A stretch of DNA of 62,124 nt from NCBI GenBank assembly GCA_035316085.1, contig DATFXI010000294.1, positions 1-62,124 of the forward strand, given 5' to 3'. This stretch comes from Candidatus Angelobacter sp. (GTDB lineage Bacteria; Acidobacteriota; Terriglobia; Terriglobales; Acidobacteriaceae). Below are positions 311-13,198 of this stretch, piece by piece. The notes below the pieces were generated by a model. That model saw only the letters and a program-made list of their open reading frames with translations. It was not told the DNA's origin and did not search any database. The position numbers and the translations under genes are program-made. Numbering within the stretch: the first letter of the stretch is position 1; each line of letters opens with the position of its first letter.

Positions 311-3300
311 CTACTGAACGTTCAGCGTGACATCGTCAATCACGAATGAAGTCTGCAGGCTGACGTCCTCCCTGCCCAAGAAGCGGATCCTAACCGTCTG
401 CCCCTTGAATTGGATCATGTTGAACGAGCGCAGTTGATAACCCGGCGCTTTGTTCAGGTTGGAGAACGTGCCCAGCGTCGCCAGCACCGTGGTGCCGGTG
501 GAGTTAAGCACCTGCACCTGCAGCGTATCGAACGCCGTGGTGGTGGTGGTTTCCGCCGAGTCGATGTGCAACCAGAAATTCAGCGTTGCAGTGGTAATGC
601 TTGCCGGGATGGTAACGGTCTGGACGGCGGAGTCGGTGTGCGTTGTGCCGTAGCCATCCAACCATGCGTCTCTGACTCCGCTGTGCGGAGGTTCGGCAGC
701 GGAAGAGTTGAGTACGCCAGCAGTCAGCGTCCATGGTGCCGCCGTCGCGTTCTCGAACCCGCCGTTCACGATGAGCTGTTGTGGCGCGTTCGAAGCCACC
801 GTCAGACTGATGGTTGTGCTATGGGTCAGCGCTCCCGAGGTGCCAGTGACCGTTACTGTTGCGGTTCCGACCGTCGCTGTGGCGCTGGCCGTAAAGGTCA
901 ACACACTGGTTGCGGTGGTCGGATTAGTCCCGAACGCGGCGGTCACCCCCGCCGGCAGCCCGGACGCCGAAAGAGTCACGCTACCGGTGAAACCACCGGA
1001 GGGCGTAACCGTGATGGTGCTGCTGCCGCTCGCGCCTTGGGTTACCGTCAAGCTGGCCGGAGAGGCCGACAGGGTGTAGTCCGGCACCGGTGCCGGATTC
1101 ACCACCAGCGTTACGTTGGCGGAATGCACCAGGCTTCCGCTGGTTCCGGTGATGGTTACCGTGTAGGTTCCAGCCGGGGTTGCACTAGTTGTGCTCACCG
1201 ACATCGTGGATGATCCCGACCCGGTCACTGATGCAGGACTGAAACTCGCGCTAGCGCCTGCGGGCAATCCGCTGGCGGCCAGACCAACCACTCCCGTGAA
1301 TCCCCCGGAGGCAGTAACGTTGGCGGTGTAGGAAGTGCTCCCGCCCGCGGTCACCGTCTGCGAAGCCGGAGTCGCCGATACGGCAAAGTCCGGAGCTACA
1401 GGCGCAGTCACTACTAGCGTCACCGAAGCCGTGTGTGTCGTCGTACCGCTGGTTCCGGTAATTGTCAATGGGAAGGTGCCGGTGGGCGTGGTGCTGGTGG
1501 TGGTCACGGTCAGCGTGGAGTTACCCGAAGTCAGCGGTGTTGGACTGAACGTACCGGTTGCGCCGGCTGGCAGTCCGCTCACCGTGAGGTCCACCGATCC
1601 GGTGAAACCACCCGTCGGCGTCACGGTAGCGGTGTACGTTGTGCTGTTACCTTGCGTGACCGATTGCGATGCCGGCGACGCAGAAACCGTATAGTCGGGG
1701 TTTCCGCAAGTGGTGAATTTGAAATTCGCGATGCGCGTGCTCCAGTTGAAGCTGCCGCTGGCTTTCAGATACTCGGTGGTGTACCAGAAAGTGCAATCGT
1801 CAACCGGATCCACGCTCAGGCTGCTGTAATCGCCCCAGCGGCTCAGGCCTCCGGTTTGGGAGCCCACGCCATCAGTGATGTCCACTTCGGTCCCCATAGT
1901 GCCGAGGGGATCGCCGGGGGCGCGACCCGTGAACCGAATGCCGGGACGCAGCGTGCTCGAAGAAATGCTATAGCCGACAGCGATGTTGCCGGCATGGTCC
2001 ATGGCTGCGCTGCCCATCCAGCGGAAGTTGGCGTCGGGAGCAAACGTGCCCTGCTGGAAAATGGTGGGCGAGCTGCCCGGGCTGCGGATTTCATACCAGC
2101 GGATGCCGGCGCTGCTGCCAGAAGTGATGGCGTGGTTCACCACCAACGCTTCGTGGTCGCCAAAATTGCGATAGGCCAGCCGGTACATCAGACGATCGGC
2201 CAGAGAATCAAGCCTCTGCGCAGTGCCAGGCTGCGGAATACAGGTGCCGCCGTTGCAAGCCGGCGAGAAGGCTGCAACCGGGATCGTGGTCGGCCCGCCC
2301 AGCGTCGCAGTGCCGTTCGTGAAGTTGGGATTGGAAATCGTGAATATGTCGAGCGAATTGGTGTTGAAGTCAACGAAATACTCCGGCGAGCCCGCCGGCG
2401 GAGGCGTACTGCCATCGAGATCAGCGGGCAGCACTCCGCCGAAACTCGTGCCCAACTGGAAGCAGATTTGCGTCGCCGCGGTGCCGGCCAGCATAGAAGC
2501 GCGGTCAAAGGCGCAAAGCTTCGGCCCGGCAAAAGTCTGGCCGTTGTTGAACACGTTGTAGGTAATGTAGTACGCGTTGTTCCAAACTCCCAGCTTGGGA
2601 TAGTCGATGAACTGCGTTGTCCCGTAGTTAAACGCGTACACATGATAGGAACCAGTTGCGTCCCCGGTCGCCGATACCGCCACGCACTGCCAGTATCCCT
2701 GCGTGCCGCCGCTCGTCACGGAGAATTGGGTCAGCACCCAGCGGTCGGCCGCTTTGTCGTACTGCGCGATGGGATCGCCGTCATTGTGCACGGCGCATGG
2801 GTGACTTGCGCCCAGCGCCTGAAACAGTGTGTTGCCCGCGGTCGGCCCAGCTAGCAGGACGCCCGTCTTGGAAAATACCGCGAAAGATTCGTTGACCCAC
2901 TGCACCACTTGCGTCGGCCCAACTGAGAGGTTGGTATCTGGTGGCGCGGAGTTGGGAGTGAATCCGTAGTCTCCCTGTCCGACTCCGGCAAAGTTGGTGA
3001 CGTTGCCGACCGTAGGCGCGGCGATGGCCACGCTCTGCAGCGCTGTGTCCACGTGTGGCGCGGGCGCAATTGGTACGCCCCTCCGCGGGAGCAGGCGAAG
3101 CGGCGGCGCTTCATGGCGTTCGCCTCGCACTGGCATCGGCGCCATATCGCGCAAAGGAATGGTGTGGGCATGTTCGCCTTTGATCCACTCCGGGATTGAT
3201 CTCCGGGCGGCCTGGTCGTTAGCCGGGGTTCGTGTTTGTGCCGCTACAAGGTTGGCCAGGGCCACGAGCAGAAAAATCATTGTGGCCTTGACTCTTATAC

Positions 3301-3313
3301 GGGGGAATCTCAT
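311..3313 (-). CDS. Large secreted protein: N-terminal globular (propeller-like?) region, three Ig-like Ser/Thr-rich repeats, C-terminal jelly-roll/CBM-like domain
   Basis: 1000-aa ORF with a signal peptide (MRFPRIRVKATMIFLLVALANLVAAQ). It has a WGDYSSLSVDP motif, three ~100-aa repeats and a C-terminal NGGFE...VIDDVTL domain, and is followed by a terminator. Confidence 0.85.
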   Translation of the reverse strand: MRFPRIRVKATMIFLLVALANLVAAQTRTPANDQAARRSIPEWIKGEHAHTIPLRDMAPMPVRGERHEAPPLRLLPRRGVPIAPAPHVDTALQSVAIAAPTVGNVTNFAGVGQGDYGFTPNSAPPDTNLSVGPTQVVQWVNESFAVFSKTGVLLAGPTAGNTLFQALGASHPCAVHNDGDPIAQYDKAADRWVLTQFSVTSGGTQGYWQCVAVSATGDATGSYHVYAFNYGTTQFIDYPKLGVWNNAYYITYNVFNNGQTFAGPKLCAFDRASMLAGTAATQICFQLGTSFGGVLPADLDGSTPPPAGSPEYFVDFNTNSLDIFTISNPNFTNGTATLGGPTTIPVAAFSPACNGGTCIPQPGTAQRLDSLADRLMYRLAYRNFGDHEALVVNHAITSGSSAGIRWYEIRSPGSSPTIFQQGTFAPDANFRWMGSAAMDHAGNIAVGYSISSSTLRPGIRFTGRAPGDPLGTMGTEVDITDGVGSQTGGLSRWGDYSSLSVDPVDDCTFWYTTEYLKASGSFNWSTRIANFKFTTCGNPDYTVSASPASQSVTQGNSTTYTATVTPTGGFTGSVDLTVSGLPAGATGTFSPTPLTSGNSTLTVTTTSTTPTGTFPLTITGTSGTTTHTASVTLVVTAPVAPDFAVSATPASQTVTAGGSTSYTANVTASGGFTGVVGLAASGLPAGASASFSPASVTGSGSSTMSVSTTSATPAGTYTVTITGTSGSLVHSANVTLVVNPAPVPDYTLSASPASLTVTQGASGSSTITVTPSGGFTGSVTLSASGLPAGVTAAFGTNPTTATSVLTFTASATATVGTATVTVTGTSGALTHSTTISLTVASNAPQQLIVNGGFENATAAPWTLTAGVLNSSAAEPPHSGVRDAWLDGYGTTHTDSAVQTVTIPASITTATLNFWLHIDSAETTTTTAFDTLQVQVLNSTGTTVLATLGTFSNLNKAPGYQLRSFNMIQFKGQTVRIRFLGREDVSLQTSFVIDDVTLNVQ
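788..1699 (-). repeat. Three tandem ~100-codon coding repeats (residues 539-640, 641-743, 744-842)
   Basis: Each unit starts PD[YF][TA][VL]SA[ST]PAS and contains GGFTG[SV]V.L..SGLPAG and T[VI]TGTSG...H[ST]..[VI][TS]L[VT]V. Confidence 0.8.
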
Positions 3314-3569: not shown

Positions 3570-4217
3570 CTACGAGATAACTATCTTTTGTGCCCAAGGA
3601 TCTTCGCCTGGCTCGGCAGCGACTGGTCGCGGTTCAACAGGCTGGGGCGCCTGAACCTGCGTTGCGACTTCCGGTGCCGGAACCGGCACGACGACTGCCG
3701 GCGCCGGAGCTGGCGCCGCGACTCCCGCTGCCGCAGCGGAAGCGCTGCCTTCCAGCGGCGGGGCCACTGGCCGCGGATCCACCGGCAACAGCTGGACGTT
3801 TTGTGCGGCCCACTTGGCGGCCAAGCCGTTGAGCGGGCTCTTGGTGTTGTATTCCTGGTAAGCGATCATGCGGCCGATGCGAATAATGAGGTCGTCAAGC
3901 GATTCGGACGCCGCCCAGAAATCGCCAATGCACACCGAACTATCATCAAAGTTTGGATGGAAGACGGGCGTGAGCATGCGGCACTGGGGCGCGCGCCGAG
4001 GATAGCCCAACGACAGATTGACCTCCAACAGATGCTCGTTGCGCTCCAGAATGGAGCCGTCGGCGGCAACGTACAGTCCGCGCAAGAAGTATTGGAAACG
4101 GTAAATCTCCGGCGGCATGCCAGCCGTGCCCGCGATGCGAATCAGAGGCCATCCGGCCAGGCGTTTAAGCAGTTGTTCGTGATCGAGTTTTAAACGGCGG
4201 ATTCGGGGCGGAAGCAT
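3570..4217 (-). CDS. UBC-fold E2-like ubiquitin-conjugating enzyme homolog with Pro/Ala-rich C-terminal tail
   Basis: Motif string L.L..GYPRRAP....LTPVFHPNFDDSSVCIGDFW...SL.DLI..I......N..SPLNGLAAKW matches the E2 core (YP..PP, HPN, catalytic Cys, SPLN..AA). I prefer the ATG at 4217, which is 4 nt after the DUF2752 stop; the track start at 4262 is TTG. Confidence 0.8.
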   Translation of the reverse strand: MLPPRIRRLKLDHEQLLKRLAGWPLIRIAGTAGMPPEIYRFQYFLRGLYVAADGSILERNEHLLEVNLSLGYPRRAPQCRMLTPVFHPNFDDSSVCIGDFWAASESLDDLIIRIGRMIAYQEYNTKSPLNGLAAKWAAQNVQLLPVDPRPVAPPLEGSASAAAAGVAAPAPAPAVVVPVPAPEVATQVQAPQPVEPRPVAAEPGEDPWAQKIVIS

Positions 4218-4221
4218 AGGC

Positions 4222-4617
4222 TCAAATCGTAAAGGCAATCCCAGCGTTGCGGACCACGACAAAAATTCCAGTCACCACCAACAGGACGGCAATGGCGCTC
4301 CAGTGCAAGCGAATCGGGGGCAGCCGGCGCTCCAGCATCACAGCAGAATACCAGTAAAGAAACCACGCCACCACGACCGGCGCTGCTAGCGTGACCAGGG
4401 CATTCATCCGAAAAGCTTCCCCCGGATTCCCGTGCAGCAACTGGTAAAGGGCGCGGGTGCCTCCGCAGCCGGGACACAGCAGGTGCGTCACTGCATAGAA
4501 AGGACACACCGGATAGAAGTGGTACTCCTGAGGCGGGAAGCTGTAAAGTACCGTGCCGCCGAGCAATGCGAGTCCCAGCACATAATTCGCGCGGCGTTGG
4601 AGACTTGTCAGTCTCAT
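4222..4617 (-). CDS. DUF2752-family membrane protein
   Basis: 131 aa with a CPFYAVTHLLCPGCGGTRA motif typical of DUF2752, plus 3-4 TM helices. It starts 2 nt after the upstream stop. Confidence 0.75.
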   Translation of the reverse strand: MRLTSLQRRANYVLGLALLGGTVLYSFPPQEYHFYPVCPFYAVTHLLCPGCGGTRALYQLLHGNPGEAFRMNALVTLAAPVVVAWFLYWYSAVMLERRLPPIRLHWSAIAVLLVVTGIFVVVRNAGIAFTI

Positions 4618-4619
4618 TC

Positions 4620-5393
4620 TTATCCCTGATATACCTGAGGAGCCAAATATCCAGTCTTCTTCCAGGCGGCGATGCGCGAGAGGTGGTGCTGGAAATAGAG
4701 GATGTTGAAGAAAAACGTCATCACTCCGCTCATACGCAGATTGATTGGCTCCACTGTGTTGTAGTACTCGACCATCGCATCCCGCAGTTTGAAGTTGCCG
4801 ATAATGTTCACCACTGCGCCTCCGAGCAACCCCAACCAGTAGAGCACGACCAGAAAGATGATCCCCGCCGGTGGTTCGTTCGACGACCTGCCGGCCGACG
4901 CCGCTGCCAGACCAATGACGCCCGCGTAGAAAATGATGATTGAACCAATCTGGATGGATAAACCTGTGATGATCAGCGTGAGGTGACTGCTATCCGGCTT
5001 GAGCTTTTTGACGAAGGCGGCTTCGATGAAAATCCATACCAAGTTGAACATGCCGCAGGAGACCATACCCAACAACAGCACCAAGGGCCATTGCAGGTCC
5101 GGGGGAACTGGGCCGGCAACGGCGGGCGCTGCCGCAGCGCCGTAGGCGAGCCCAGCGGCAGCGGGCGTGCCGCTGTAAACAGTTTCACCTGGCGAGGGCA
5201 TGGCCGCAGGCACAGAGGGAGGCGGTGGTGCAGGTAACTCGCCGATGACTTGCGAGACCGGCACCCAGTCCGTCATGCCTTCGCTCCGCGTCAGGTCGTT
5301 CTTGGAGATGTTGCCCTGGGCCACATAACGCTGAAGATCGCCCAGGGTATATGGGCCGTACTCGTTGAGATCGCGTTTGATGAAATATTTCAT
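4620..5393 (-). CDS. GYF_2-domain membrane protein (paralog A)
   Basis: N-terminus MKYFIKRDLNEYGPYTLGDLQRYVAQGNISKNDLTRSEGMTDWVPVSQVIG is a GYF_2/DUF4339 pattern. It is followed by a Pro/Ala linker, about 4 TM helices and a conserved tail YFQHHLSRIAAWKKTG. Confidence 0.8.
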   Translation of the reverse strand: MKYFIKRDLNEYGPYTLGDLQRYVAQGNISKNDLTRSEGMTDWVPVSQVIGELPAPPPPSVPAAMPSPGETVYSGTPAAAGLAYGAAAAPAVAGPVPPDLQWPLVLLLGMVSCGMFNLVWIFIEAAFVKKLKPDSSHLTLIITGLSIQIGSIIIFYAGVIGLAAASAGRSSNEPPAGIIFLVVLYWLGLLGGAVVNIIGNFKLRDAMVEYYNTVEPINLRMSGVMTFFFNILYFQHHLSRIAAWKKTGYLAPQVYQG

Positions 5394-5470
5394 CTAGGGC
5401 TTAGAACTCCTGTCTTCTTCCACCGGGCAATCCGGCTGAAGTGATATTGGAAATAAAGGACGTTACGTTC
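5390..5470 (-). pseudogene. Decayed 3' fragment of a third GYF-membrane paralog
   Basis: The minus-strand frame reads (stop)ERNVLYFQYHFSRIARWKKTGVLSPR(stop), matching the C-termini of both neighbours (FYFQHHFSRIARWKKTGVLAPQG). Its TGA overlaps the ATG of paralog A (ATGA). Confidence 0.65.
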
Positions 5471-5514
5471 TCACTGCGCCGGCGCCCGACGTAATATTGC
5501 AAAGCCTCATGCCC

Positions 5515-6204
5515 TCAGCCTTGCGGCGCCAGTACGCCGGTCTTCTTCCATCGAGCAATCCGCGAGAAATGATGTTGAAAATAAAAGACAGCGAAAAAGA
5601 ACGTCATTACGCCGCTCAGTTGCAGATAGATAGGTTCCACAGAATTGTAGTAGTCCTCAAGTTCACTACGCATGCTAAAGATCGCCACGATATGCAGCAC
5701 AATTCCCGCCAACCAAAATAACGCCCCAAGAGGATGCGTATCAGCATGCGTCACCCCACCACCCATAAAAGCGCTGGCGTAAGAGGCGACAACCGCCAAT
5801 ATCACCAGAACCAAACTCTTGGCCCCGGGCTTTATTTTCTGGATCCAGGCTGCTTCAACGATCAGCCAAGCACTCAAAAACAGCCCGCAAGTGACAACAC
5901 CTATCAGCAGTACCAGGCCCCAATGAAAGTCCGGCGGGACAGGGCCTGAGGCCATGGCCGGGGTGGCTGCCGCACCGTAGGACCCGGCTCCTGCGTACAC
6001 CGTTCCTCCAGCGGCGGGCATGGCCGGCGCCGTGACTGGCACCGGAATGTCGCCGATGACTTGCGAAACCGGCACCCAATCCGTCATACCCTCGCTGCGC
6101 GTCAGGTCAGACAGGGCGATGTTGCCCTGGGCCACGTAGCGCTGAAGCTCAGCCAGTGTGTACGGACCGTACTCATTTATCCCACGCTTGATGGAATATT
6201 TCAT
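5515..6204 (-). CDS. GYF_2-domain membrane protein (paralog B)
   Basis: 229 aa with N-terminus MKYSIKRGINEYGPYTLAELQRYVAQGNIALSDLTRSEGMTDWVPVSQVIG. Architecture and C-terminal tail are the same as paralog A. GGGAGAGGG lies directly upstream of the ATG. Confidence 0.8.
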   Translation of the reverse strand: MKYSIKRGINEYGPYTLAELQRYVAQGNIALSDLTRSEGMTDWVPVSQVIGDIPVPVTAPAMPAAGGTVYAGAGSYGAAATPAMASGPVPPDFHWGLVLLIGVVTCGLFLSAWLIVEAAWIQKIKPGAKSLVLVILAVVASYASAFMGGGVTHADTHPLGALFWLAGIVLHIVAIFSMRSELEDYYNSVEPIYLQLSGVMTFFFAVFYFQHHFSRIARWKKTGVLAPQG

Positions 6205-6225
6205 CCCTCTCCCTTTTGCTGGAAA

Positions 6226-6813
6226 TCAGCTGAACTGTATACCAGCACTATCTTTATCCACAACGCAAATCTCCACGATGGCCCAGATCCATGACACGAT
6301 GGCCAGGTAGAACACGGTCAGCACGCTGAGACACAGCTGGCCGACGGCACGGCCGGTGTATCCCGCGTAAAAGTTGTGGATCCCGAGCGCTCCCAGAAAA
6401 ACTCCCAACACAATGTAGGTGGTACGGCTCTTGGGCGCGCGTCCGGCCGCTGCGACCGGCTGAGCGTACGCTCCGCCTGTAGCAGCCGCCGCGGCTGGTT
6501 GTGCCGCCGGACTAGGCTGGTTGAGTCCCAGCGGCCCACTGTAAGGCGAGGGGTACTGCGGCATCGGAGTGACGGCGGGCTGTTGCACCGCGGCCACGGG
6601 TTGCTGCACCATAGCGGCGTTCAAGTCACTGTAAGAAACCTGAAGCTTAGGATCGTCCGCCGGCGCTTTCGCACAACCGAATACAGTGCAGCCGCCGTTT
6701 TCGTAGTAGCAATCTTCGTGGTGTGGCGTGCCGCAGGCGGTGCAGTAGATCTTCGCCGGACTCCGGTCGTCGAAGGGCATGCGGCAATAAGGACAGACAA
6801 TCGCCTCGGCCAT
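6226..6813 (-). CDS. Prokaryotic RING-like binuclear zinc finger fused to a TM2 membrane domain (candidate membrane E3)
   Basis: N-terminus CPYC-x13-CTAC-x2-HH-x2-C-x6-C-x4-C provides the 8 ligands needed for two Zn, plus an alternative adjacent His. A Pro/Ala/Gln linker follows. C-terminus YIVLGVFLGALGIHNFYAGY...WIWAIVEICVVDKDSAG matches the TM2 domain pattern. Its ATG overlaps the upstream stop (TAATG). Confidence 0.8.
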   Translation of the reverse strand: MAEAIVCPYCRMPFDDRSPAKIYCTACGTPHHEDCYYENGGCTVFGCAKAPADDPKLQVSYSDLNAAMVQQPVAAVQQPAVTPMPQYPSPYSGPLGLNQPSPAAQPAAAAATGGAYAQPVAAAGRAPKSRTTYIVLGVFLGALGIHNFYAGYTGRAVGQLCLSVLTVFYLAIVSWIWAIVEICVVDKDSAGIQFS

Positions 6814-7892
6814 TATTTCCTATGCCTCTCGCGGAAGTGGAACGCGTAGCGGCCGATCTGGATCAGGTCACCACTCTGCAAAGCGCGGCTCCGCACAGGC
6901 TGTCCGGAAACATAGATTTGTGCCTGGGCATGAAGAAACGTCTGAGCTCCGCGCAGCTCGATGCGCGCATGCTGCTGCTGGATCGACGGATCTTTAAACA
7001 GATAGATATCGCACTGCTGGCTGCTGCCGATGGCAGTGATCGGCTTGTACAGAATGAATTGCTTGCCGGCCAGCGGGCCGGAAGCGACGTACAGCCAGCG
7101 GTCTTTGAGAGCGCTCTCGACGATCCCCATCGCCACGCCGGTGGCCATTCCCAGCAAACCGAAACCGACCGCGCGACTGGGCGCGCCGGAATGTGTGGCC
7201 ATGGCAATGGGATCAAAGACCATGCCGCCCAGTCCCGATCCGATGATACCGCCTAATATCCCGTAGCGCACCTTTTTGCCCGAGCGGTCGACGATTCCAT
7301 AGACAATGCCCCCGGCCACTCCGAAGACCATCCAAGCCAGGCCGCGCGCAACCCAAGCTGCCGGGTTGTGGTGCGTGCGTACGCCCAGCTCGTAGCAAAT
7401 CCCCAGGCCGATGGTGTAGAAAATTTCGGCGATGAAGTCAAAGATCACCCCTAAAACCAGTCCCAGAAGAATGGACAGGAAGCCGTTCCAGAGGGCCTTG
7501 CGTATCGACCGCTCCACCAGGCTCTCCGCCGCTCCAAAGCCCAGACATATCAGCGCGATGATGAGCGGCATCATCGCGTGGTCGGCGATCCAGTTGGCCC
7601 ACCCCGTGGGAGGACCATCCACGAACCACGGCTCGCAGATTCCCCAGCCCAGCAGCGCTCCGATCAGCCCGGCTAAGCCCAGATAGAACCAGCCTTGCAA
7701 ATAAATCTTGGACTTGCCTTCATCCACCACCGGCGTATCCGCCGCCCCTGGCGTTGAGATGTTGCCATACTGCCGGGCGGCGCCTGGCGCTACCCCGGCG
7801 CCAGCAACCGCCACAGGTTCCTGACGCAGGTTTACCTTCTCCAAGTCTTCGAGCGTGATTTTCAGCGAAGGTTTATCGTCAGTGTTTGCCAT
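6813..7892 (-). CDS. Polytopic membrane protein with C-terminal FHA domain
   Basis: About 6 TM helices followed by GKQFILYKPITAIGSSQQCDIYLFKDPSIQQQHARIELRG...YVSGQPV....LQSGDLIQIG (FHA pattern). I prefer the ATG at 7892 (MANTDDK), which overlaps the JAB gene by 14 nt. Confidence 0.8.
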   Translation of the reverse strand: MANTDDKPSLKITLEDLEKVNLRQEPVAVAGAGVAPGAARQYGNISTPGAADTPVVDEGKSKIYLQGWFYLGLAGLIGALLGWGICEPWFVDGPPTGWANWIADHAMMPLIIALICLGFGAAESLVERSIRKALWNGFLSILLGLVLGVIFDFIAEIFYTIGLGICYELGVRTHHNPAAWVARGLAWMVFGVAGGIVYGIVDRSGKKVRYGILGGIIGSGLGGMVFDPIAMATHSGAPSRAVGFGLLGMATGVAMGIVESALKDRWLYVASGPLAGKQFILYKPITAIGSSQQCDIYLFKDPSIQQQHARIELRGAQTFLHAQAQIYVSGQPVRSRALQSGDLIQIGRYAFHFRERHRK

Positions 7893-8799
7893 TGGTTCCC
7901 TTCCCAGCGCCGGCCGGAGCTTTCTGTTGTGGTTGCGATGGTTGCTGCGGGCCCTGGGCCCCGGGTGTTCCGGCGCCGGACGGACCAAGTTGTGAGGGGA
8001 ACATGCGCTGAACCCGCGCCTCGCACGAGCGAAGCTCCGGCTCGCACTGCCGGACGACGCCCTGTAACGCGTTAATTTGCGGCTCCAACTCCAGGAACAG
8101 GTCCTGATAGGCGCGGATCTTCGGCTCGGTTTGCCGCGCGTGGATCAGATATCCCAGAACAAATCCCATGGCCATGACTGCAAAATATCCGAGGATTCGG
8201 CTGGTCCAGGTCACCCACAGCGGCTCACCGGAAGCGTTGCCGTCTCCGACGTTGACCCGGGATTCGAGACCCTCTCCCCCGTCCTCGTCGTAATCGTCAA
8301 CCGCATGGGAAGCGGTCGCCTCCACGCTTTGCGAATACCCGGTGCGAATGCCGGAAAGCTTCTCGGTCTTGCCACCGACCCAGCCGAAGCATCCTTCTTC
8401 ATCGGTATGCGGATCGTAGACCCAGGCGATCTGCTGTGGGCTGGAAAAGAAATTCTCCTGGATAAAGAGATCGTGCTCGGAGAGAAATACCCCGAACCCG
8501 GGATGCGAATGGTACCAGCCAACGATCTTGTCGTCAGGAAACTGCTGGTCCTTGATCTTGTAAATGTGCTCCCAGGTGTCTTGAGTGAAGGTCACATGGG
8601 CGCCGCCTTGCGCCGCGTTGATGCCCGCGATGCAGGCCTCTATCACGGTGCGGTCATTGTCCAGCGTGCCGATGAGCACACCGCAGACTTCAGCCTTCAT
8701 CGAGGTGCGCGCGTGCTGGCGGATCTTGCGCGCCACTTCCGCTTCCATCACCACTACGGGCTGGCTTTTGATTTTCACCTTGATGTGTTGCGATGTCAT
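7879..8799 (-). CDS. JAB/MPN+ (JAMM) metalloisopeptidase with C-terminal TM helix and Pro/Gln-rich tail
   Basis: The JAMM motif is intact: EVCGVLIG ... GWYHSHPGFGVFLSEHD (E, HxH, S, D). The TM segment is ILGYFAVMAMGFVLGYLIHA. The start at 8799 (MTSQHIKV) forms ATGA with the E1 stop, and the long N-terminal extension in the ORF track lies inside the E1 gene. Confidence 0.85.
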   Translation of the reverse strand: MTSQHIKVKIKSQPVVVMEAEVARKIRQHARTSMKAEVCGVLIGTLDNDRTVIEACIAGINAAQGGAHVTFTQDTWEHIYKIKDQQFPDDKIVGWYHSHPGFGVFLSEHDLFIQENFFSSPQQIAWVYDPHTDEEGCFGWVGGKTEKLSGIRTGYSQSVEATASHAVDDYDEDGGEGLESRVNVGDGNASGEPLWVTWTSRILGYFAVMAMGFVLGYLIHARQTEPKIRAYQDLFLELEPQINALQGVVRQCEPELRSCEARVQRMFPSQLGPSGAGTPGAQGPQQPSQPQQKAPAGAGKGTNGKH

Positions 8800-10064
8800 T
8801 GTGACGCTCCCGACGCGCGACTGCCCTGCCTGGCTGCTGCCAGCGGCCCGAGCACGGCCGGCTCGTCGCCCGCGATCAGATATGCCACTTCCCGCTCCGC
8901 CGAGCGCGCCGTGAAAACATCGAAGAGCGGCAACCCCATTTCCGCCACGGTGCGCTTGCCGTACGATTCCGTCGGTTCCCTGCCGCTGTAGCCGTGGGCT
9001 GTGATCACAGCGCGGCGCTGGCCACACTTCGGACATTTTCCATGCGCGTAGGCCACAGCGCCTACTGCTGCAAACACTTCTTCCTCTGTGCCGCATCCGG
9101 CGCAAGCCAGCTTATGAATCACGTCGCGGCTGAACTCCAGTGTCGCGTCCTGCGAGCCCAGGTCGCGCCGCGCGCGCTCAAGCAGCTGGCGGAGTGTCAG
9201 CTCGCGCGAAGTTTCTCCCACCGAGACTACTTCCTCCAGCGTGTGATGGCTCATACAGGCGTCGTTCTCGGTGTATTCAACTTTGTACGAGGTGTGGTTC
9301 AGGCCTTCGAAAATGAATCCCTGGCCGGCCAGCACCGGCAGGCCGTGCAGCAGCTTCACCGCTTCCTGCACTTCGAGTCCGGCAATAATCGAAGAGATGG
9401 TGGGCGTGGTGGCCACCTTGCCCTCGCTCGAGGCTTCGAGCGCCAGCAAATTGCACGACATCCTCTTGTTCAGAATGGCCCAGTCCGTCTCACCCAGCGT
9501 GCATTCGTAACAAGGCGGGCGGCCGGGAAGAAACGCGCGGGCCACGCCGTTGATGCCTTCAATGGCGCCGTCAATCCACGGCCTGTTCATCTTCCAGCAG
9601 GCACGGTTGATCCACAGCCGGGCTTCGCGATTGTCCAAACCGGCCAGCACGACGTCAGCCCAGTGGAACAATCCCAGCCCCAGCCCGTGCACCACATCGC
9701 CCTGGATAGGCTGGACCTGGGCTTCAGGAAGAATGTTGCGCACGGCTTCGGCAGCGGCTTCCGCCTTGGACCGGCCTATGTCTTCGGCGCGATAGAGAAT
9801 GCTGCGCGAAAGGTTGGAGGCTTCGATTGCATCCAGGTCCACCACTGCGATGTGGGTGAAACCGAGCAGAGCCAGATTTTTGAGGATTTCATTTCCCAAC
9901 GCGCCGGCGCCGATCACCAGCACCCGTGCCGCGCGAATTTTTTCCTGGTCCCACCAGCCGATGAGACGAAAACGGCTGAAGCGGTCTTCTGCGGCAGACT
10001 TCGGGGTCCCCGGACCGGGCCGGTTTTGCCCGGGCTGGGGTGGGGGCGCTACCGGCTGGCTCAT
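8796..10064 (-). CDS. E1-like adenylyltransferase (ThiF/MoeB/UBA superfamily)
   Basis: Rossmann motif VLVIGAGALGNEILKNLALLG, then VVDLDAIEASNLSRSILY. Zn-type CxxC pairs (PPCYEC; CAGC...CPKC), a crossover-loop Cys (RMSCN), and a ~120-aa C-terminal extension. Its ATG overlaps the Ubl stop (ATGA). Confidence 0.9.
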   Translation of the reverse strand: MSQPVAPPPQPGQNRPGPGTPKSAAEDRFSRFRLIGWWDQEKIRAARVLVIGAGALGNEILKNLALLGFTHIAVVDLDAIEASNLSRSILYRAEDIGRSKAEAAAEAVRNILPEAQVQPIQGDVVHGLGLGLFHWADVVLAGLDNREARLWINRACWKMNRPWIDGAIEGINGVARAFLPGRPPCYECTLGETDWAILNKRMSCNLLALEASSEGKVATTPTISSIIAGLEVQEAVKLLHGLPVLAGQGFIFEGLNHTSYKVEYTENDACMSHHTLEEVVSVGETSRELTLRQLLERARRDLGSQDATLEFSRDVIHKLACAGCGTEEEVFAAVGAVAYAHGKCPKCGQRRAVITAHGYSGREPTESYGKRTVAEMGLPLFDVFTARSAEREVAYLIAGDEPAVLGPLAAARQGSRASGASQ

Positions 10065-10336
10065 CGCGCTCCTGCGGTGATCTCCGGCTGCAGGCGCAGG
10101 ATGTCACCATCTTTCACGGCGGCGTCGGCCAGGGTCTGCGCGTCCTGGATCTGGCGCCCAGAATTCTTGTGATGAAATTTATAGCTCAGCGGCGCACCGT
10201 CAGGGCCGTTGGGCGGGAGCTGAAGCTTTTCCACCAGCACAGCAATGATGCGGTTGGCGGGAGCATCATCAGGAAGCTCCACAGGCACGCGTTTGTTTTC
10301 CGTGGAATCGTACACAGTGACAGTGATGTTGGCCAT
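10061..10336 (-). CDS. Ubiquitin-like beta-grasp protein (Ubl), C-terminus ...ILRLQPEITAGAR
   Basis: 91 aa. The alternating hydrophobic pattern ITVTVYD...VPVELPDD....II..LVEKL.LP......LSYKF......QIQDAQTLADAAVKDGDILRL resembles ubiquitin/YukD-type beta-grasp domains. Its position immediately 5' of the E1, with translational coupling, supports the call. Confidence 0.7.
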   Translation of the reverse strand: MANITVTVYDSTENKRVPVELPDDAPANRIIAVLVEKLQLPPNGPDGAPLSYKFHHKNSGRQIQDAQTLADAAVKDGDILRLQPEITAGAR

Positions 10337-10350
10337 GGTTCGTAGAATCC

Positions 10351-11490
10351 CTATCGCGCCCCATTCTTGTTATCGTGGGTTGGTTTGTCCGGAGAAGAAT
10401 CTTCTTTCTTGGGGTCGCCGCGCACTTTGGCTTTGTGCACGAAGTCAGTGAATTCATTCTTGGCGGTTGCGGTGCCCACCAGCTCCCAGTCGCCCTCATG
10501 CAGCAGAGCATCGGTGCTCACGGCAAAATTCAGGTTCTCGGCTTCCGGTTCTGCCGAACGCGCGACCTTGGACGTGACCACACCTAGCAGGTTGCCGAGT
10601 TCGTCATACACTGGCCCGCCGCTGTTGCCTGGGCTCACCGGCGCTGAAACCTGGAGCACGTCATTGCCGGGCGTACGCGAAACAATTCCGTTGCTGATGC
10701 TGAAGTTCAAACCCTCAGGGTGTCCGATGACGTAAATCTTCTCGCCCGCCTGCACGCTCGCATATGTGGCAACTGGCTGACGGAAGACGCCGTCACCGAA
10801 CTTGCGTTCCAGCCATAGCAAGGCGACGTCGAAACGCTTGTGGCGGCCCAACACTGTGGCCGCGGCCCAGCCGTTCATGCCGTCGGAAACCATCACCTTT
10901 TGCGCGCCCTTCTTCGTGCGCCAGTCTTCACCGTCCGCCACGTGTCGCGCGGTGGCCAGCAGGTAACCGCGGGCGTCGGCTTGCAGAATCAACGCCGCGC
11001 CCAGCAGGCCGGAAGTGCTCTCTGTTTTCGAGAACCAGCGTTTGGCGGCAGGCGATGCCAACAGCACCAACGGCTTCAACGTTGCGCTCAACTCCACGCC
11101 CGACATGGTTTTTTCCGCCGGCAGGCTGGGAAACGCGCTGCGCTCGTCCAGGCCAGAGAGTGCAACGCCCACCGCGTCCGGCGCCGGCGCCCAGGAGAGC
11201 GAAATCGCCAGCAGCATGATGACGGTGGAGAAGAATCCGCTGCCAATCATCAACGCCAGCAGGTAAGACCACCAGGCTTGCATCGCGCGTGGCGTCTGGC
11301 TCCGCACTGTTACCCGTAAGATCAGTGCTACTAACGCCAGCAGCGGAAGCACCAGGACCAGCGGGAGCAGGGCCAATCTCGCCCACACAGGCACAGGGTT
11401 CGGCAGCCTTGGGCGCGACGGTTCCTGCACGCCAGGCACCGGGACCGGTGTCCGGTCAACTTCTTGAGTAGTAATGACGATACGTTCCAT
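10351..11490 (-). CDS. Membrane-anchored trypsin-like (S1/Trypsin_2) serine protease
   Basis: N-terminal TM helices are followed by catalytic triad candidates ATARHV (His), FDVALLW (Asp) and PGNSGGPVY (Ser). It is the first gene of the operon and ends 14 nt upstream of the Ubl start. Confidence 0.85.
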   Translation of the reverse strand: MERIVITTQEVDRTPVPVPGVQEPSRPRLPNPVPVWARLALLPLVLVLPLLALVALILRVTVRSQTPRAMQAWWSYLLALMIGSGFFSTVIMLLAISLSWAPAPDAVGVALSGLDERSAFPSLPAEKTMSGVELSATLKPLVLLASPAAKRWFSKTESTSGLLGAALILQADARGYLLATARHVADGEDWRTKKGAQKVMVSDGMNGWAAATVLGRHKRFDVALLWLERKFGDGVFRQPVATYASVQAGEKIYVIGHPEGLNFSISNGIVSRTPGNDVLQVSAPVSPGNSGGPVYDELGNLLGVVTSKVARSAEPEAENLNFAVSTDALLHEGDWELVGTATAKNEFTDFVHKAKVRGDPKKEDSSPDKPTHDNKNGAR

Positions 11491-11644: not shown

Positions 11645-12319
11645 TTACCGCCGGATGTGGCAATTCTCGGTGGTTGGATTGGCGGGCAGACGGAGGATCG
11701 TCGGGAACGCGATCACCGGCGCGGCAATCAGGTCTCCATAGCGCACCCACTGCTGCTGCAAGCCCGCCGCATTGCGCGCGAAAGGCCAGGTCTGCAGCTC
11801 CACGCTGAACGCCAGATTGCCTGGATACGCGGTCCCGGGGACGGTTTGCGCACGGTTGTTCCGTACCGGAATGCCGTACACCACGGTGAATTCGAACTTC
11901 TGGTTGTGCTTGAGGACAGCGAAAGTGTCGTCGTCGGGCGCGGGACCGAACGCCGTGCTGTCGGCCCGAAGACGGGCAGCGCGCACCGGCGTACCCAGTT
12001 CATAGCGGCCGGCCTGCACGTCGTCGTTGGTCTTACCCAGCAACACCCTCTGCACTTGTAACGCCCGCGCCAAGATGATCGGCGCGCGCCGGCCGTTGAC
12101 AATGGTCACGTCAATCGGGATATACACCACGTAGGCATCCGGCCCGAAGGCGCAGAATCGCGAAGGTTCCAGCGCAAGCGCTGTAACTTCCACGCCCTCC
12201 GTAGGGTCGGGGGTTGGAGTCGGTTTGGCTTGCGACAGTTGAACCACGGACCGGGAGGCGCTACCCGCGTTTGCGCCGATTGCCAACGCCGCTGCCGACA
12301 CCAGCGCCACGCTCATCAT
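11645..12319 (-). CDS. Secreted hypothetical protein
   Basis: Signal-like start MMSVALVSAAALAIGANA, chosen at 12319. The longer track ORF adds an Arg/Cys/His-rich, non-protein-like extension. No recognisable motifs. Confidence 0.55.
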   Translation of the reverse strand: MMSVALVSAAALAIGANAGSASRSVVQLSQAKPTPTPDPTEGVEVTALALEPSRFCAFGPDAYVVYIPIDVTIVNGRRAPIILARALQVQRVLLGKTNDDVQAGRYELGTPVRAARLRADSTAFGPAPDDDTFAVLKHNQKFEFTVVYGIPVRNNRAQTVPGTAYPGNLAFSVELQTWPFARNAAGLQQQWVRYGDLIAAPVIAFPTILRLPANPTTENCHIRR

Positions 12320-12658
12320 CAGAACGGTTTGATTCCCAAGCCTGGACAAATCCGATCCCTTAAAGACAATTTCAACTTTGCAAGTATGCCTGCGATGACG
12401 GTGTGCCAGCAAGCACCTACTTCGGTTCTTTTTGCGTAATTCGCGAAATGGACCCTCCTGGTGCGGGTGATCGCGACTAAGCAAGGGCGCGTGTAGGGGT
12501 TCGCCGTAACGGCAGGAGCGTATGGATGGCGAAGCACGATAGGGACAAACTGGTTTAAGAGTAAGAAATGCCCTCACTAGCCTCAGATTAGAGTTTGTTT
12601 AAAATTTTATTTTATGACAGAGAAAACTGCAGTTCTGGTTTAAAATACTACCTCCCCA

Positions 12659-13198
12659 ATGGATTCGAATTTAAGAACCGATAAGCTTTTGGACCAAATT
12701 GGCTGGAAATTGCTCCATGAGCTGCAAGTCAACGGGCGGCTCTCCTACGCGGAGCTGGGCCGCCGCGTGGGCCTGACTACGCCCGCGGTTGTGGAACGCG
12801 TAAAACGCATGGAAGAAGCCGGCATCATCATCGGCTATCACGCCGACGTGGATCCCATGAAGGTCGGGATGCCGATCACGGCGTTCATCCGCATGTCCGT
12901 GGTGGGTGACGTGTTTACCCGAATTACTACCGTGGTAAAGAATTCGCCGGAAGTGGTGGAATGTCATCGTGGCACTGGCGCCGACTCGTTCATCATGAAA
13001 GTCCACGTGCGCTCGGTGGAACATCTGGAATCGTTGATTGACAGGCTTACGCCGTTTGGTACCACTTCAACGTCAATTGTGCTGTCGTCACCGGTGGAGC
13101 GGCGGGAAATCCACCGGCCGGACGAGAGCACGCCCGCTTCTGCTTCCCCGGCGGCGCATGCCGCCGCTCACGCTGCGCACTCCGCGCAAAAGAAATAA
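12659..13198 (+). CDS. Lrp/AsnC-family transcriptional regulator
   Basis: [50 protein letters not shown], followed by a RAM/AsnC_trans_reg-like domain. Confidence 0.9.

Follow-up and report, generated by a model that had tools for sequence, protein, structure and literature searches.

Does a soil bacterium of the Acidobacteriota encode a whole ubiquitin-type conjugation pathway, including a RING-type ligase, and could this pathway operate at the membrane? The question is raised by ten consecutive genes, all on the minus strand and running from position 11490 to 3570, in a stretch of 62,124 nucleotides from Candidatus Angelobacter sp. (Acidobacteriaceae; assembly GCA_035316085.1, contig DATFXI010000294.1, positions 1-62,124, forward strand), hereafter the window. 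Their products are a ubiquitin-like protein (Ubl), an activating enzyme (E1), a conjugating enzyme (E2), a RING-type candidate ligase (E3) and a JAB metallopeptidase, accompanied by a trypsin-like protease, a polytopic FHA-domain protein, two GYF-domain paralogs and a DUF2752 protein. In our opinion, this operon probably encodes a membrane-tethered E1-E2-RING system for Ubl conjugation, with the JAB peptidase serving in processing and deconjugation. Burroughs, Iyer and Aravind reportedly predicted in 2011 (Mol Biosyst) bacterial operons that combine a YukD-like Ubl with E1, E2, JAB and RING proteins, and their abstract is said to raise the possibility that such systems conjugate YukD-like Ubls. 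Judged by its domain content, the operon of the window is a member of this predicted class, with which it shares the five enzymatic parts, the Pfam families and the phyla. Acidobacteria and Planctomycetes have been named as carriers of such uncharacterised operons (PMC4197634), and "complete operons" in bacteria have been noted (PMC5654768).

The Ubl tag and its proposed conjugation enzymes

The domain calls used here are those above the Pfam gathering cut-offs, which all ten products pass, and these profile hidden Markov model (HMM) searches agree with every domain named in an earlier reading of the same DNA made from its letters alone (hereafter the initial annotation). That reading had also proposed a complete Ubl/E1/E2/RING/JAB set, and in the orthologs, extracted from 80 species-level genomes, the catalytic residues of this set are intact and invariant.

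By its Pfam scores, the Ubl is a beta-grasp protein of the YukD family (58 bits) and not of the ubiquitin family (16 bits). Its Gly89 (codon 10070-10072) falls in register with Gly76 of ubiquitin in a weak alignment (ubiquitin residues 46-70), and both Ala88 and Gly89 are unchanged in 55 Ubl sequences. Every Terriglobia ortholog contains the end ...LRLQPEITAG; about half of them stop exactly at that glycine, and the others carry variable residues (AR, AQ, SR, AK, AE, GR, S, A, ARRRE or SIILP). The same end is present in distant loci, followed by nothing, MH, GITL or SSVVRRG, so that the tails measure one to seven residues overall. Ubl precursors that are trimmed before activation look like this, with an invariant glycine at the end and, behind it, a tail that varies and can be missing; the predicted mature C-terminus of the window Ubl is accordingly Ala88-Gly89, with a removable Ala-Arg tail. 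No other component is as conserved as the Ubl, and its conservation is ubiquitin-like: the median identity within Terriglobia is 89%, against 68% for E1, 67% for E2, 60% for the FHA protein and 56% for JAB, with a lower group formed by GYF (50%), protease (49%), RING (48%) and DUF2752 (45%). Across phyla, the Ubl retains 63-65% identity, compared with 30-55% for the other components.

The E1 (ThiF, 185 bits; adenylation domain at residues 32-264) has as its best relatives of solved structure the active adenylation domains of UBA7, SAE2, UBA3 and UBA1 (E-values of 1e-34 to 1e-24), and in this comparison with the sequences of solved structures the matches to ThiF and MoeB rank behind the eukaryotic E1s. 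The residues C185xxC188, Cys204 (within RMSCN) and C270xxH273 are unchanged in 53 sequences. The first and last of these motifs form a putative zinc site, and Cys204 (codon 9453-9455), located in the crossover region, is the candidate catalytic cysteine; the surrounding R[MR]SCNLL is maintained across phyla. The C-terminal domain (approximately residues 280-422, about 140 aa) is conserved as well and contains a CxxC...Cxx[C/D] ribbon. A role in sulfur-carrier or cofactor biosynthesis of the ThiS/MoaD type was considered and rejected, as there are no biosynthetic genes, E2, RING and JAB are present and the E1 is nearer to its eukaryotic counterparts than to ThiF or MoeB.

The JAB protein (JAB 61 bits, Prok-JAB 44 bits) is most closely related, among proteins of solved structure, to Rpn11 (2e-12) and the Caldiarchaeum Rpn11-like protein 6fjv (4e-10), followed by CSN5. 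Its residues E37, H97-x-H99, S107 and D110 are unchanged in 35 sequences. A hydrophobic anchor at residues 202-220 is followed by a tail of about 86 aa, and a C-terminal transmembrane (TM) segment is found on JAB in all distant variants.

For the E2 (UQ_con, 34 bits for a cut-off of 27), the most probable start codon is the ATG at 4217, which gives a product of 215 aa, and not the TTG at 4262. Its core (residues 1-155) contains H87-P88-N89 and the catalytic Cys96 (codon 3930-3932), which are unchanged in 82 sequences, and in matches to Protein Data Bank (PDB) sequences, UBE2C, UBE2A and UBE2N align with HPN and Cys in register. In the AlphaFold2 model, which shows the canonical UBC topology, most of the core exceeds a predicted local distance difference test score (pLDDT) of 90. 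Foldseek finds 390 matches to this model in the PDB (E<=1e-3); those ranked highest are without exception eukaryotic E2s with a probability of 1.0, among them UBE2K, Rad6 and Ubc13. Model and fold search together confirm the UBC fold that the initial annotation had recognised, along with the HPN...Cys site, in this protein. An apparent TM segment of this protein is a Pro/Ala linker, and behind this variable Pro/Ala-rich linker lies a conserved C-terminal motif, EDPWxQKIVIS (3573-3605, minus strand). In distant E2 relatives, a zinc ribbon or TM segments often replace the motif at this position.

The RING protein matches Prok-RING_1 (32.2 bits, cut-off 29.1) and TM2 (48 bits), and its public annotation is "NINE protein" or "TM2 domain-containing membrane protein YozV". 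The finger (6664-6813) has the ligands C7, C10, C24, C27, H32, C35, C42 and C47. These eight zinc ligands are present in every ortholog covering the region, and the spacing C-x2-C-x13-C-x2-C-x4-H-x2-C-x6-C-x4-C is identical in distant variants. A disordered Pro/Gln/Ala linker, variable except for a near-invariant S..Y.GPLGL motif (6523-6546, minus strand), leads to the TM2 helical hairpin (residues ~127-189; 6247-6435). In the AlphaFold2 model the zinc finger reaches a pLDDT of 66-77, a moderate confidence, and the Foldseek matches of this model are all cross-brace zinc fingers, none of them significant. Because the structural evidence is weak here, the RING assignment rests on the Prok-RING_1 match, the ligand pattern and the context.

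Operon organisation

The open reading frame (ORF) list contains all ten genes where the initial annotation had placed them (Table 1), and our junction script reproduces its junctions exactly. The Ubl/E1 and E1/JAB junctions are ATGA overlaps, the FHA/RING junction is TAATG, and the JAB and FHA genes overlap by 14 nt; from their sequence, these overlaps amount to translational coupling. The remaining intergenic gaps measure 2, 4, 14 and 21 nt, apart from a single gap of 121 nt. This last gap, which had been described as a decayed gene copy, translates in one frame to ...NVLYFQYHFSRIARWKKTGVLSP before a stop codon, matching the C-terminus common to both GYF paralogs (...FYFQHHFSRIARWKKTGVLAPQG), and the remnant (...YFQYHFSRIARWKKTGVLSP, then stop) also aligns at the nucleotide level with the 3' end of the first GYF gene. 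It is therefore the decayed 3' fragment of a third GYF copy, and since most related genomes have a single GYF gene, the tandem duplication and decay are local to the lineage of the window. Rfam and tRNA scans gave no matches, and the promoter and terminator scans stayed at background level.

Table 1. Coordinates, in the window, of the operon genes, of the gene remnant among them and of the divergent upstream regulator.
Feature	Coordinates	Strand	Basis
Gene 1, membrane-anchored trypsin-like (S1/HtrA-like) serine protease, 379 aa	10351..11490	-	Pfam Trypsin_2
Gene 2, YukD-family beta-grasp Ubl precursor, 91 aa	10061..10336	-	Pfam YukD
Gene 3, E1-like activating enzyme, 422 aa	8796..10064	-	Pfam ThiF
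Gene 4, JAMM/MPN+ metallopeptidase, 306 aa	7879..8799	-	Pfam JAB, Prok-JAB
Gene 5, polytopic (5-6 TM) protein with C-terminal non-canonical FHA domain, 359 aa	6813..7892	-	Pfam Yop-YscD_cpl, FHA
Gene 6, membrane RING-type E3 candidate, 195 aa	6226..6813	-	Pfam Prok-RING_1, TM2
Gene 7, GYF_2 membrane protein, paralog 1, 229 aa	5515..6204	-	Pfam GYF_2
Remnant of 121 nt, 3' end of a GYF-paralog gene	5394..5514	-	Frame translation, nucleotide alignment
Gene 8, GYF_2 membrane protein, paralog 2, 257 aa	4620..5393	-	Pfam GYF_2
Gene 9, DUF2752 small membrane protein, 131 aa	4222..4617	-	Pfam DUF2752
Gene 10, UBC-fold E2, 215 aa	3570..4217	-	Pfam UQ_con
AsnC/Lrp-family regulator, divergent	12659..13198	+	Synteny in related loci

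Membrane anchoring and the partner proteins

A Kyte-Doolittle scan, a crude hydropathy method from which all our TM and topology calls derive, finds hydrophobic TM segments in seven of the ten products (RING, JAB, FHA protein, both GYF paralogs, DUF2752 and protease), the same number as in the initial annotation. The FHA protein has five to six predicted TM segments (hereafter the 6-TM protein) and matches Yop-YscD_cpl with 47 bits and FHA with 41 bits; its FHA domain covers residues ~269-356 (6825-7088), and the best Pfam match of this domain is the FHA-like cytoplasmic domain of the type III secretion protein YscD. In the alignment with GarA, the Arg of the GR motif is a Ser in 63 of the 64 orthologs, the Ser of SxxH is replaced by Leu, Ala or Gln, and NGT is replaced as well (Asn by Asp or Ala). 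The phosphothreonine-binding residues are likewise replaced in the 6-TM proteins of distant loci. On the evidence of these residues, the FHA domain of the 6-TM protein is non-canonical and not a canonical phosphothreonine reader; the FHA call of the initial annotation thus holds for the fold, which passes Pfam, while the Arg, Ser and Asn required for phosphothreonine binding are gone. In the distant loci L083 and L085 (locus handles of this study), an FHA domain fused to the RING retains the Arg and the Ser-x-x-His (IGR...VSRLHA), so that the E3 itself may be a reader of phosphorylation in some variants. These fusions (L083 9030-10004, L085 8994-10004), together with E2-kinase fusions and a PP2C-type (SpoIIE) gene beside L085, are a hint of phosphorylation-dependent substrate choice in some lineages.

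In Bacillus type VIIb secretion (T7SSb), cryo-electron microscopy has revealed that the FHA domains of YukB are bound and held in place by YukD (PMC12637312). Following this precedent, we propose that the FHA domain of the 6-TM protein is a phospho-independent docking module for the Ubl, and maybe its receptor, by analogy with the FHA domains of YukB. The same precedent can be turned into a different explanation, in which the Ubl is not conjugated and is instead a YukD-like structural subunit, clamped non-covalently onto the 6-TM protein's FHA domain so as to organise a complex in the membrane, E1, E2 and JAB having some other or a vestigial role. YukD is indeed the best family match of the Ubl and stabilises FHA domains non-covalently (PMC12637312), an FHA membrane protein always accompanies the Ubl, and its FHA domain lacks the phosphothreonine residues, as do the FHA-like domains of secretion systems. 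Nevertheless, it would be hard to explain on this basis why the invariant E1, E2 and JAB sites and the E2-RING pair are co-inherited with the Ubl over two phyla, and a terminal Gly with removable tails is a conjugation signature for which no need is known in the YukD of type VII secretion. Neither an EssC/FtsK ATPase nor a WXG100 protein was seen among the listed neighbours and, besides, binding and conjugation can coexist. We therefore consider a purely non-covalent Ubl highly improbable.

The protease (Trypsin_2, 74 bits) has TM helices at residues 39-57 and 78-96 and a catalytic domain at residues ~175-304, the triad H183/D221/S290 of which is unchanged in 53 orthologs. The charges of its flanks conflict under the positive-inside rule, with a basic N-flank, a basic loop and an acidic C-flank. 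A single-TM relative in L088 suggests a periplasmic protease domain, and the RING-TM-protease fusions described below have two to four crude TM predictions.

The two GYF paralogs score 38 and 41 bits for GYF_2, the first consisting of an N-terminal GYF domain, a Pro-rich linker and three or four TM segments, and GYF_2 partners also occur in the distant loci L085 and L087. The DUF2752 protein (69 bits) has an invariant C38 and a motif C48-P-G-C51-G-x-T-R with invariant Cys residues. We would see the GYF and DUF2752 membrane proteins as lineage-variable adaptors. It is a matter of speculation whether the E2 motif EDPWxQKIVIS and the YxGPLGL of the RING linker are docking peptides, possibly for GYF domains, although both are candidates for such a role.

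Different membrane partners have a common N-terminal motif across phyla, approximately (D/E)(K/R)-hydrophobic-x-hydrophobic-x-x-acidic-acidic-hydrophobic. In the window, it appears in the protease as ERIVITTQEV (11458-11487, minus strand) and in the FHA protein as LKITLEDL (7842-7865, minus strand). Elsewhere, the protease has M[DE]xIVITxQEV (Terriglobia), EKITIRPEEV (L087) or EKLKITADDL (L088), and the FHA protein KPxLKITLEDL (Terriglobia), EKIxIxWDDL or DKIRISWxEV (other loci); an extra single-TM protein of L088 carries GEKIRISPEEI. The pattern matches one of the 154 ORFs of the window (the protease) and eight N-termini in five distant loci, all of them membrane proteins of the system. Besides the window, it was noted in L083 and L085-L088. 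In character it is similar to docking peptides that form a beta-strand, of which the SUMO-interaction motif is an example.

Given this membrane context, the Ubl could instead be conjugated to a membrane amine such as phosphatidylethanolamine, as Atg8 is, or as in the ubiquitination of phosphatidylethanolamine by the yeast transmembrane RING E3 Tul1, with JAB acting as a delipidating enzyme. Both the E3 and the deconjugating JAB are membrane-anchored in every variant and our data identify no protein target; moreover, Atg8 and Ufm1 end in a single small residue followed by Gly, as does this Ubl, and phosphatidylethanolamine is abundant in the inner membranes of diderms. Direct evidence for a lipid target is absent from our data, and the shared N-terminal motifs and the reader-like FHA domain on the E3 of L083 and L085 point to protein recognition, which makes lipid conjugation very unlikely in our view.

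Conservation in Terriglobia and the flanking genes

In a pattern scan of 185,579 species genomes, a close relative of the E2 was found in 226, and the 80 best of them were examined; almost all of these are metagenome-assembled genomes (MAGs) of Terriglobia (Ca. Angelobacter, Acidoferrum, Sulfotelmatobacter, Terracidiphilus), and all the relatives that we retrieved come from MAGs or metagenome assemblies. Gene order was recorded in the 53 loci whose sequence extends 7.5 kb or more upstream of the E2. Protease, Ubl, E1, JAB, FHA, RING, GYF and E2 genes follow one another in the same order and on the same strand in 50 of them; taken singly, the protease is present in 51/53, the FHA protein in 50/53 and DUF2752 in 35/53. 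An order shared by 50 of 53 species-level genomes is far beyond chance. Just upstream of the operon, a divergent AsnC/Lrp regulator, 85-94% identical, is found in 24 related loci, and the flank consisting of this regulator and an old yellow enzyme (OYE) reductase is common to 20-24 loci. The AsnC/Lrp protein is possibly a regulator of the operon, with which it is associated by synteny only.

These conserved flanks, together with identities that track relatedness across the 50 species, indicate that the Terriglobia locus is chromosomal and vertically inherited rather than a mobile island. This bears on the published interpretation of E2/JAB prokaryotic Ubl operons as mobile selfish elements, a kind of "protein-level restriction-modification" in which the ligase destabilises proteins and JAB rescues them (PMC3417536). 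The coupling of opposing ligase and JAB activities fits this interpretation, and the class is sporadic across bacteria (PMC4197634). It is however at odds with a syntenic, vertical locus that has conserved flanks, no integrase or transposase beside the operon in the window and identities scaling with relatedness in Terriglobia. In addition, L042 (7000-10600) retains the E2, part of the protease gene and the flank with OYE and AsnC, and has lost Ubl, E1, JAB, FHA, RING, GYF and DUF2752; this apparent internal deletion shows the system to be dispensable, and such a simple loss bears no sign of addiction. A selfish element thus appears improbable in the extreme.

Some features of the neighbourhood are more restricted. 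Between the operon and the AsnC gene, the window contains an ORF at 11645-12577 (minus strand) that has no Pfam match and includes an internal signal-peptide-like stretch, MMSVALVSAAALAIGANAGSAS; a counterpart exists in the closest relative (L002, 82%) and in no other locus, which makes it a lineage-specific insertion. Downstream of the E2, a gene at 311-3313 (minus strand) encodes a predicted secreted protein of 1000 aa with no Pfam match at E<=1e-5 and about three internal repeats of ~95 aa (TVTP.GGFTGSV.L..SGLPAG....FSP...). Partial relatives of this protein follow the operon in seven loci, with long matches in four only. Stand-alone E2 genes also exist in Terriglobia: in L065 (10001-11419), an E2 paralog of 472 aa is fused to TPR repeats, away from Ubl and E1 genes, and a lone E2 is also present in L079.

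Distribution beyond Terriglobia

An exhaustive search with the E2 core over 1.84 billion representatives gave 1,496 clusters at E<=1e-3, including 831 at E<=1e-10 and 180 at E<=1e-30. The HPN...C is retained in 123 of 127 distant E2 members, 30 of which have at least one TM segment in a crude scan, and the named relatives of these distant E2s belong to the Planctomycetota. Fusions of distant E2s involve FHA (9), Ser/Thr kinase (2) and Trypsin_2 (1) domains, as well as zinc ribbons, TPR and DUF4190. A core of YukD, ThiF, JAB, 6-TM FHA protein, membrane RING and E2 was found in the same order in L083, L085, L086, L089 (Tepidisphaeraceae, GCA_036565145.1) and L090 (Planctomycetes bacterium, GCA_018814795.1). 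L087 and L088 have this core together with a Trypsin_2 protease, L087 also encoding a GYF_2 membrane protein, and a GYF_2+TM2 fusion adjoins the core in L085. In the distant loci, the FHA protein always has six TM segments and the RING protein always two or three.

The composition was further recorded, with HMMs built from the ortholog sets, in 21 metagenome loci having enough upstream DNA. JAB, FHA and RING are present in 20/21, Ubl and E1 in 19/21, the protease in 17/21, DUF2752 in 10/21, GYF in 4/21 and TM2 in 3/21. The co-conservation in related genomes, whose absence would have counted against the initial annotation, is therefore real, both within Acidobacteriota and beyond. In 11 of the 14 loci inspected, the protease ORF begins with a RING motif followed by TM helices, that is, a RING-TM-protease fusion (L121 8665-9975; also L094, L100, L109, L118, L128, L133, L138, L143, L146 and L149). 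Most of these loci have a second RING-domain match in a separate ORF. Further fusions are FHA-RING-TM and GYF_2-TM2. That RING and protease are fused, and that domains are shuffled within one set of partners, argues for proteins working as one membrane complex.

The surroundings of the distant loci vary. In L090 (2527-9225), from a Planctomycetes MAG, MotA/ExbB and ExbD genes, a proton-motive-force motor pair, lie between Ubl and E1, and a fragment of a WYL-domain gene is located at the contig edge. A divergent gene with ParA/CbiA-type ATPase domains, possibly a BY-kinase (bacterial tyrosine kinase), lies upstream of the Ubl in L083, L085, L086 and L089, with a Wzz domain in L086 and L089, and the polysaccharide genes Bac_transf and WecG follow in L083, L085 and L086. 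These ParA and polysaccharide neighbours may reflect the synteny of a lineage or a functional link to envelope polysaccharide export.

Comparison with known systems

The operon of Caldiarchaeum subterraneum, with ubiquitin, E1, E2, a small RING and an Rpn11-like protein, was reportedly described by Nunoura in 2011 and reconstituted by Hennell James in 2017. Its E1/E2/RING cascade works in vitro, and its Rpn11-like JAB cleaves a ubiquitin fusion at the di-glycine and deconjugates ubiquitin (PMC5654768). This cascade is the nearest experimentally characterised relative of the window operon. Both have operonic Ubl, E1, E2 and RING-type genes with a JAMM peptidase, and the predicted processing of the Ubl precursor by a JAMM enzyme follows the archaeal logic. 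The RING patterns are nearly the same, the Caldiarchaeum C-x2-C-x11-C-x2-C-x4-H-x2-C-x10-C-x2-C differing from the finger described above by its spacers (x13, x6 and x4 in the latter). In contrast, the archaeal parts are soluble, the Ubl is of the ubiquitin family with Gly-Gly and a proteasome is present, whereas the window has a YukD-type Ala-Gly tag, a membrane-anchored E3 and deubiquitinase, and the added FHA protein, protease, GYF and DUF2752 proteins.

In bacteria, the only Ubl-type cascades that have been shown biochemically are Bil, the Cap2/Cap3 pair of the cyclic-oligonucleotide-based anti-phage signalling system (CBASS), and Bub (PMC11601596, PMC11601603). They share with the window operon a JAB peptidase, adenylation by a domain of the E1 type and a substrate that is a beta-grasp protein or has a C-terminal Gly, and differ from it in having no RING, other E2 families and a location in defence islands or mobile contexts. 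From the Bil models, PADLOC yields no more than a partial match of BilD to the Rossmann core of the E1 (38.6 bits), besides unspecific matches to the JAB fold, in agreement with the initial annotation, which had set the locus apart from Bil and CBASS. Bil has an ISG15-like or multi-beta-grasp Ubl, and its E2 carries a CEHH motif (PMC11354881) where the window E2 has HPN...C; membership in Bil was rejected, neither the Ubl nor the E2 having a PADLOC match. In type II CBASS, an E2-E1 fusion protein acts on a CD-NTase (cGAS/DncV-like nucleotidyltransferase), and Cap3 is the JAB enzyme. Membership in this system was rejected too, as E1 and E2 are separate genes here, the E1-E2 models of PADLOC cover just residues ~35-190 of the E1, and inspection of the ORFs and neighbouring genes turned up no CD-NTase. 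Bub operates by oxyester chemistry (E1 Tyr, E2 Ser) and has a DUF6527 serine protease, BubE (PMC11601596); it was rejected given the Cys at the catalytic position of the E2, the lack of a DUF6527 match in Pfam and a protease of the Trypsin_2 type with His-Asp-Ser.

Even outside these families, the operon could be an infection-triggered anti-phage or stress defence system of a similar kind. All characterised bacterial E1/E2/JAB systems serve defence or suspected stress functions (PMC11601596, PMC11601603), WYL regulators, of which L090 has a fragment, accompany many Bub operons (PMC11601603), and the E1 adenylation core and JAB domain do match PADLOC models. However, PADLOC has no match for Ubl, E2, RING, FHA, GYF or DUF2752, and the E1 and JAB matches reflect shared folds only. 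The syntenic occurrence in 50/53 related species is vertical and not patchy, no defence genes adjoin the operon in the window (ORF list and neighbour check), and the viral contig search found no relative on viral contigs. Finally, the Ubl is extremely conserved, without arms-race diversification. A defence function is thus unlikely.

The resemblance to T7SSb (YukD/EsaB) consists in a YukD-family Ubl paired with non-canonical FHA membrane proteins (PMC12637312); that system differs in having no E1, E2, RING or JAB and in its non-covalent YukD. Membership in type VIIb secretion was rejected, no FtsK-type ATPase, EssB pseudokinase or WXG100 protein being found among the operon products and listed neighbours.

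Functional analogies exist in eukaryotes. In endoplasmic-reticulum-associated degradation (ERAD) by Hrd1 and Doa10 with Ubc6 and Ubc7, and in the Dsc/Tul1 pathway, a membrane RING E3 and a UBC-fold E2 act on membrane targets, with a JAMM deubiquitinase downstream. The bacterial operon has neither a Cdc48-like segregase nor a proteasome, and the trypsin-like protease is the sole degradative enzyme of the window set.

As for novelty, the initial annotation knew of no characterised bacterial RING-containing version, and our literature search also found no experiment on one, an absence that is not proof since the coverage was limited. The class itself is not new: the prediction of 2011 is repeated in two later articles (PMC4197634, PMC5654768) and embodied in the Pfam family Prok-RING_1. 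A broad and influential survey had concluded that no bacterial genome has a complete ubiquitin toolkit (PMC4327156), showing that the system is under-appreciated. As far as we have checked, the new elements are the signature of a precursor ending in Ala-Gly, a tag conserved in the manner of ubiquitin, inheritance that is vertical and syntenic, the non-canonical FHA domain with its YukD precedent, the shared N-terminal motif and the RING-protease fusions.

A proposed mechanism and its weak points

How might such a system work? The chemical steps, the enzyme that trims the precursor, the targets and what the FHA, GYF, DUF2752 and protease components do are what we infer from the intact sites, the membrane anchors and the co-inheritance described above. 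The two-residue tail behind Ala88-Gly89 of the Ubl precursor would be trimmed, most likely by the membrane-anchored, Rpn11-like JAB, for which BilC provides an analogy as a JAMM processing enzyme. The protease was judged less likely than JAB as the Ubl processor, considering the analogy with the Caldiarchaeum Rpn11 (PMC5654768) and the possible periplasmic facing of the protease. The E1, with its adenylation domain and Cys204 in place, would adenylate Gly89 with ATP and load the Ubl on this cysteine, from which the Ubl would be transferred to Cys96 of the E2, beside the HPN of its UBC fold. The RING-TM2 protein, seated in the inner membrane, would recruit the E2~Ubl and direct the tag to nearby targets, probably membrane proteins; the first candidates would be the motif-bearing operon partners, namely the protease and the 6-TM FHA protein. 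JAB may additionally reverse the conjugation. The protease, because it is fused to a RING in other lineages, would be an integral output or a partner of the E3.

Several points weigh against a conjugation system of this kind. The Ubl ends in Ala-Gly and not in Gly-Gly, and YukD, the prototype of its family, works non-covalently (PMC12637312). The profile of the E1 C-terminal domain finds no solved relative among PDB sequences, and thus no match to an E2-recruiting ubiquitin-fold domain (UFD). The Prok-RING_1 score is just above its cut-off, and the top Foldseek matches of the RING model are PHD, FYVE and the RING-H2 of EL5, all with E>0.3, and do not separate RING from PHD or FYVE. The protease domain may be periplasmic, the sequence signals on its sidedness being in conflict, and in that case cannot reach cytoplasmic conjugates. 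The N-terminal motif pattern was written after seeing the sequences and is therefore a lead, not a test. Finally, the literature that we found holds no adenylation, thioester or conjugate data on any bacterial member, and none of our own data identify a protein target.

We still consider a membrane-tethered conjugation cascade probable. The initial annotation had spoken of a membrane-localised tagging machine, perhaps for ERAD-like quality control: enzymes with intact sites tied to the membrane uphold the first part, and the ERAD-like purpose stays conjectural, the candidates at the inner membrane being signalling, quality control and turnover. A more specific proposal, which we advance tentatively and with considerable doubt, is that of a vertically inherited housekeeping system that tags motif-bearing inner-membrane proteins and either passes them on to the E3-associated protease or regulates this protease, with YukD-FHA recognition as the receptor principle. 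If true, it would be a self-contained "tag-and-cut" pathway of membrane proteostasis or signalling, analogous to ERAD or Dsc, in two phyla.

Implications

The existence of this operon is unsurprising to a specialist; as a class it is experimentally untouched and bears on the origin of RING-dependent ubiquitination. The present analysis defines what could be addressed first: the mature tag (residues 1-89), the candidate cysteines (E1 C204 and E2 C96), the candidate docking motif, the candidate first substrates and the proposed Ubl-FHA interaction. The system is also chromosomal and abundant in soil Acidobacteriota and in Planctomycetota, with the 831 E2 clusters counted above at E<=1e-10. The bacterial Ubl cascades tested so far (CBASS Cap2, Bil and Bub) have no E3 and are tied to phage defence or suspected stress. 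If the system of Candidatus Angelobacter and its relatives works at the membrane as proposed, RING-dependent tagging of endogenous targets would not be confined to archaea and eukaryotes.

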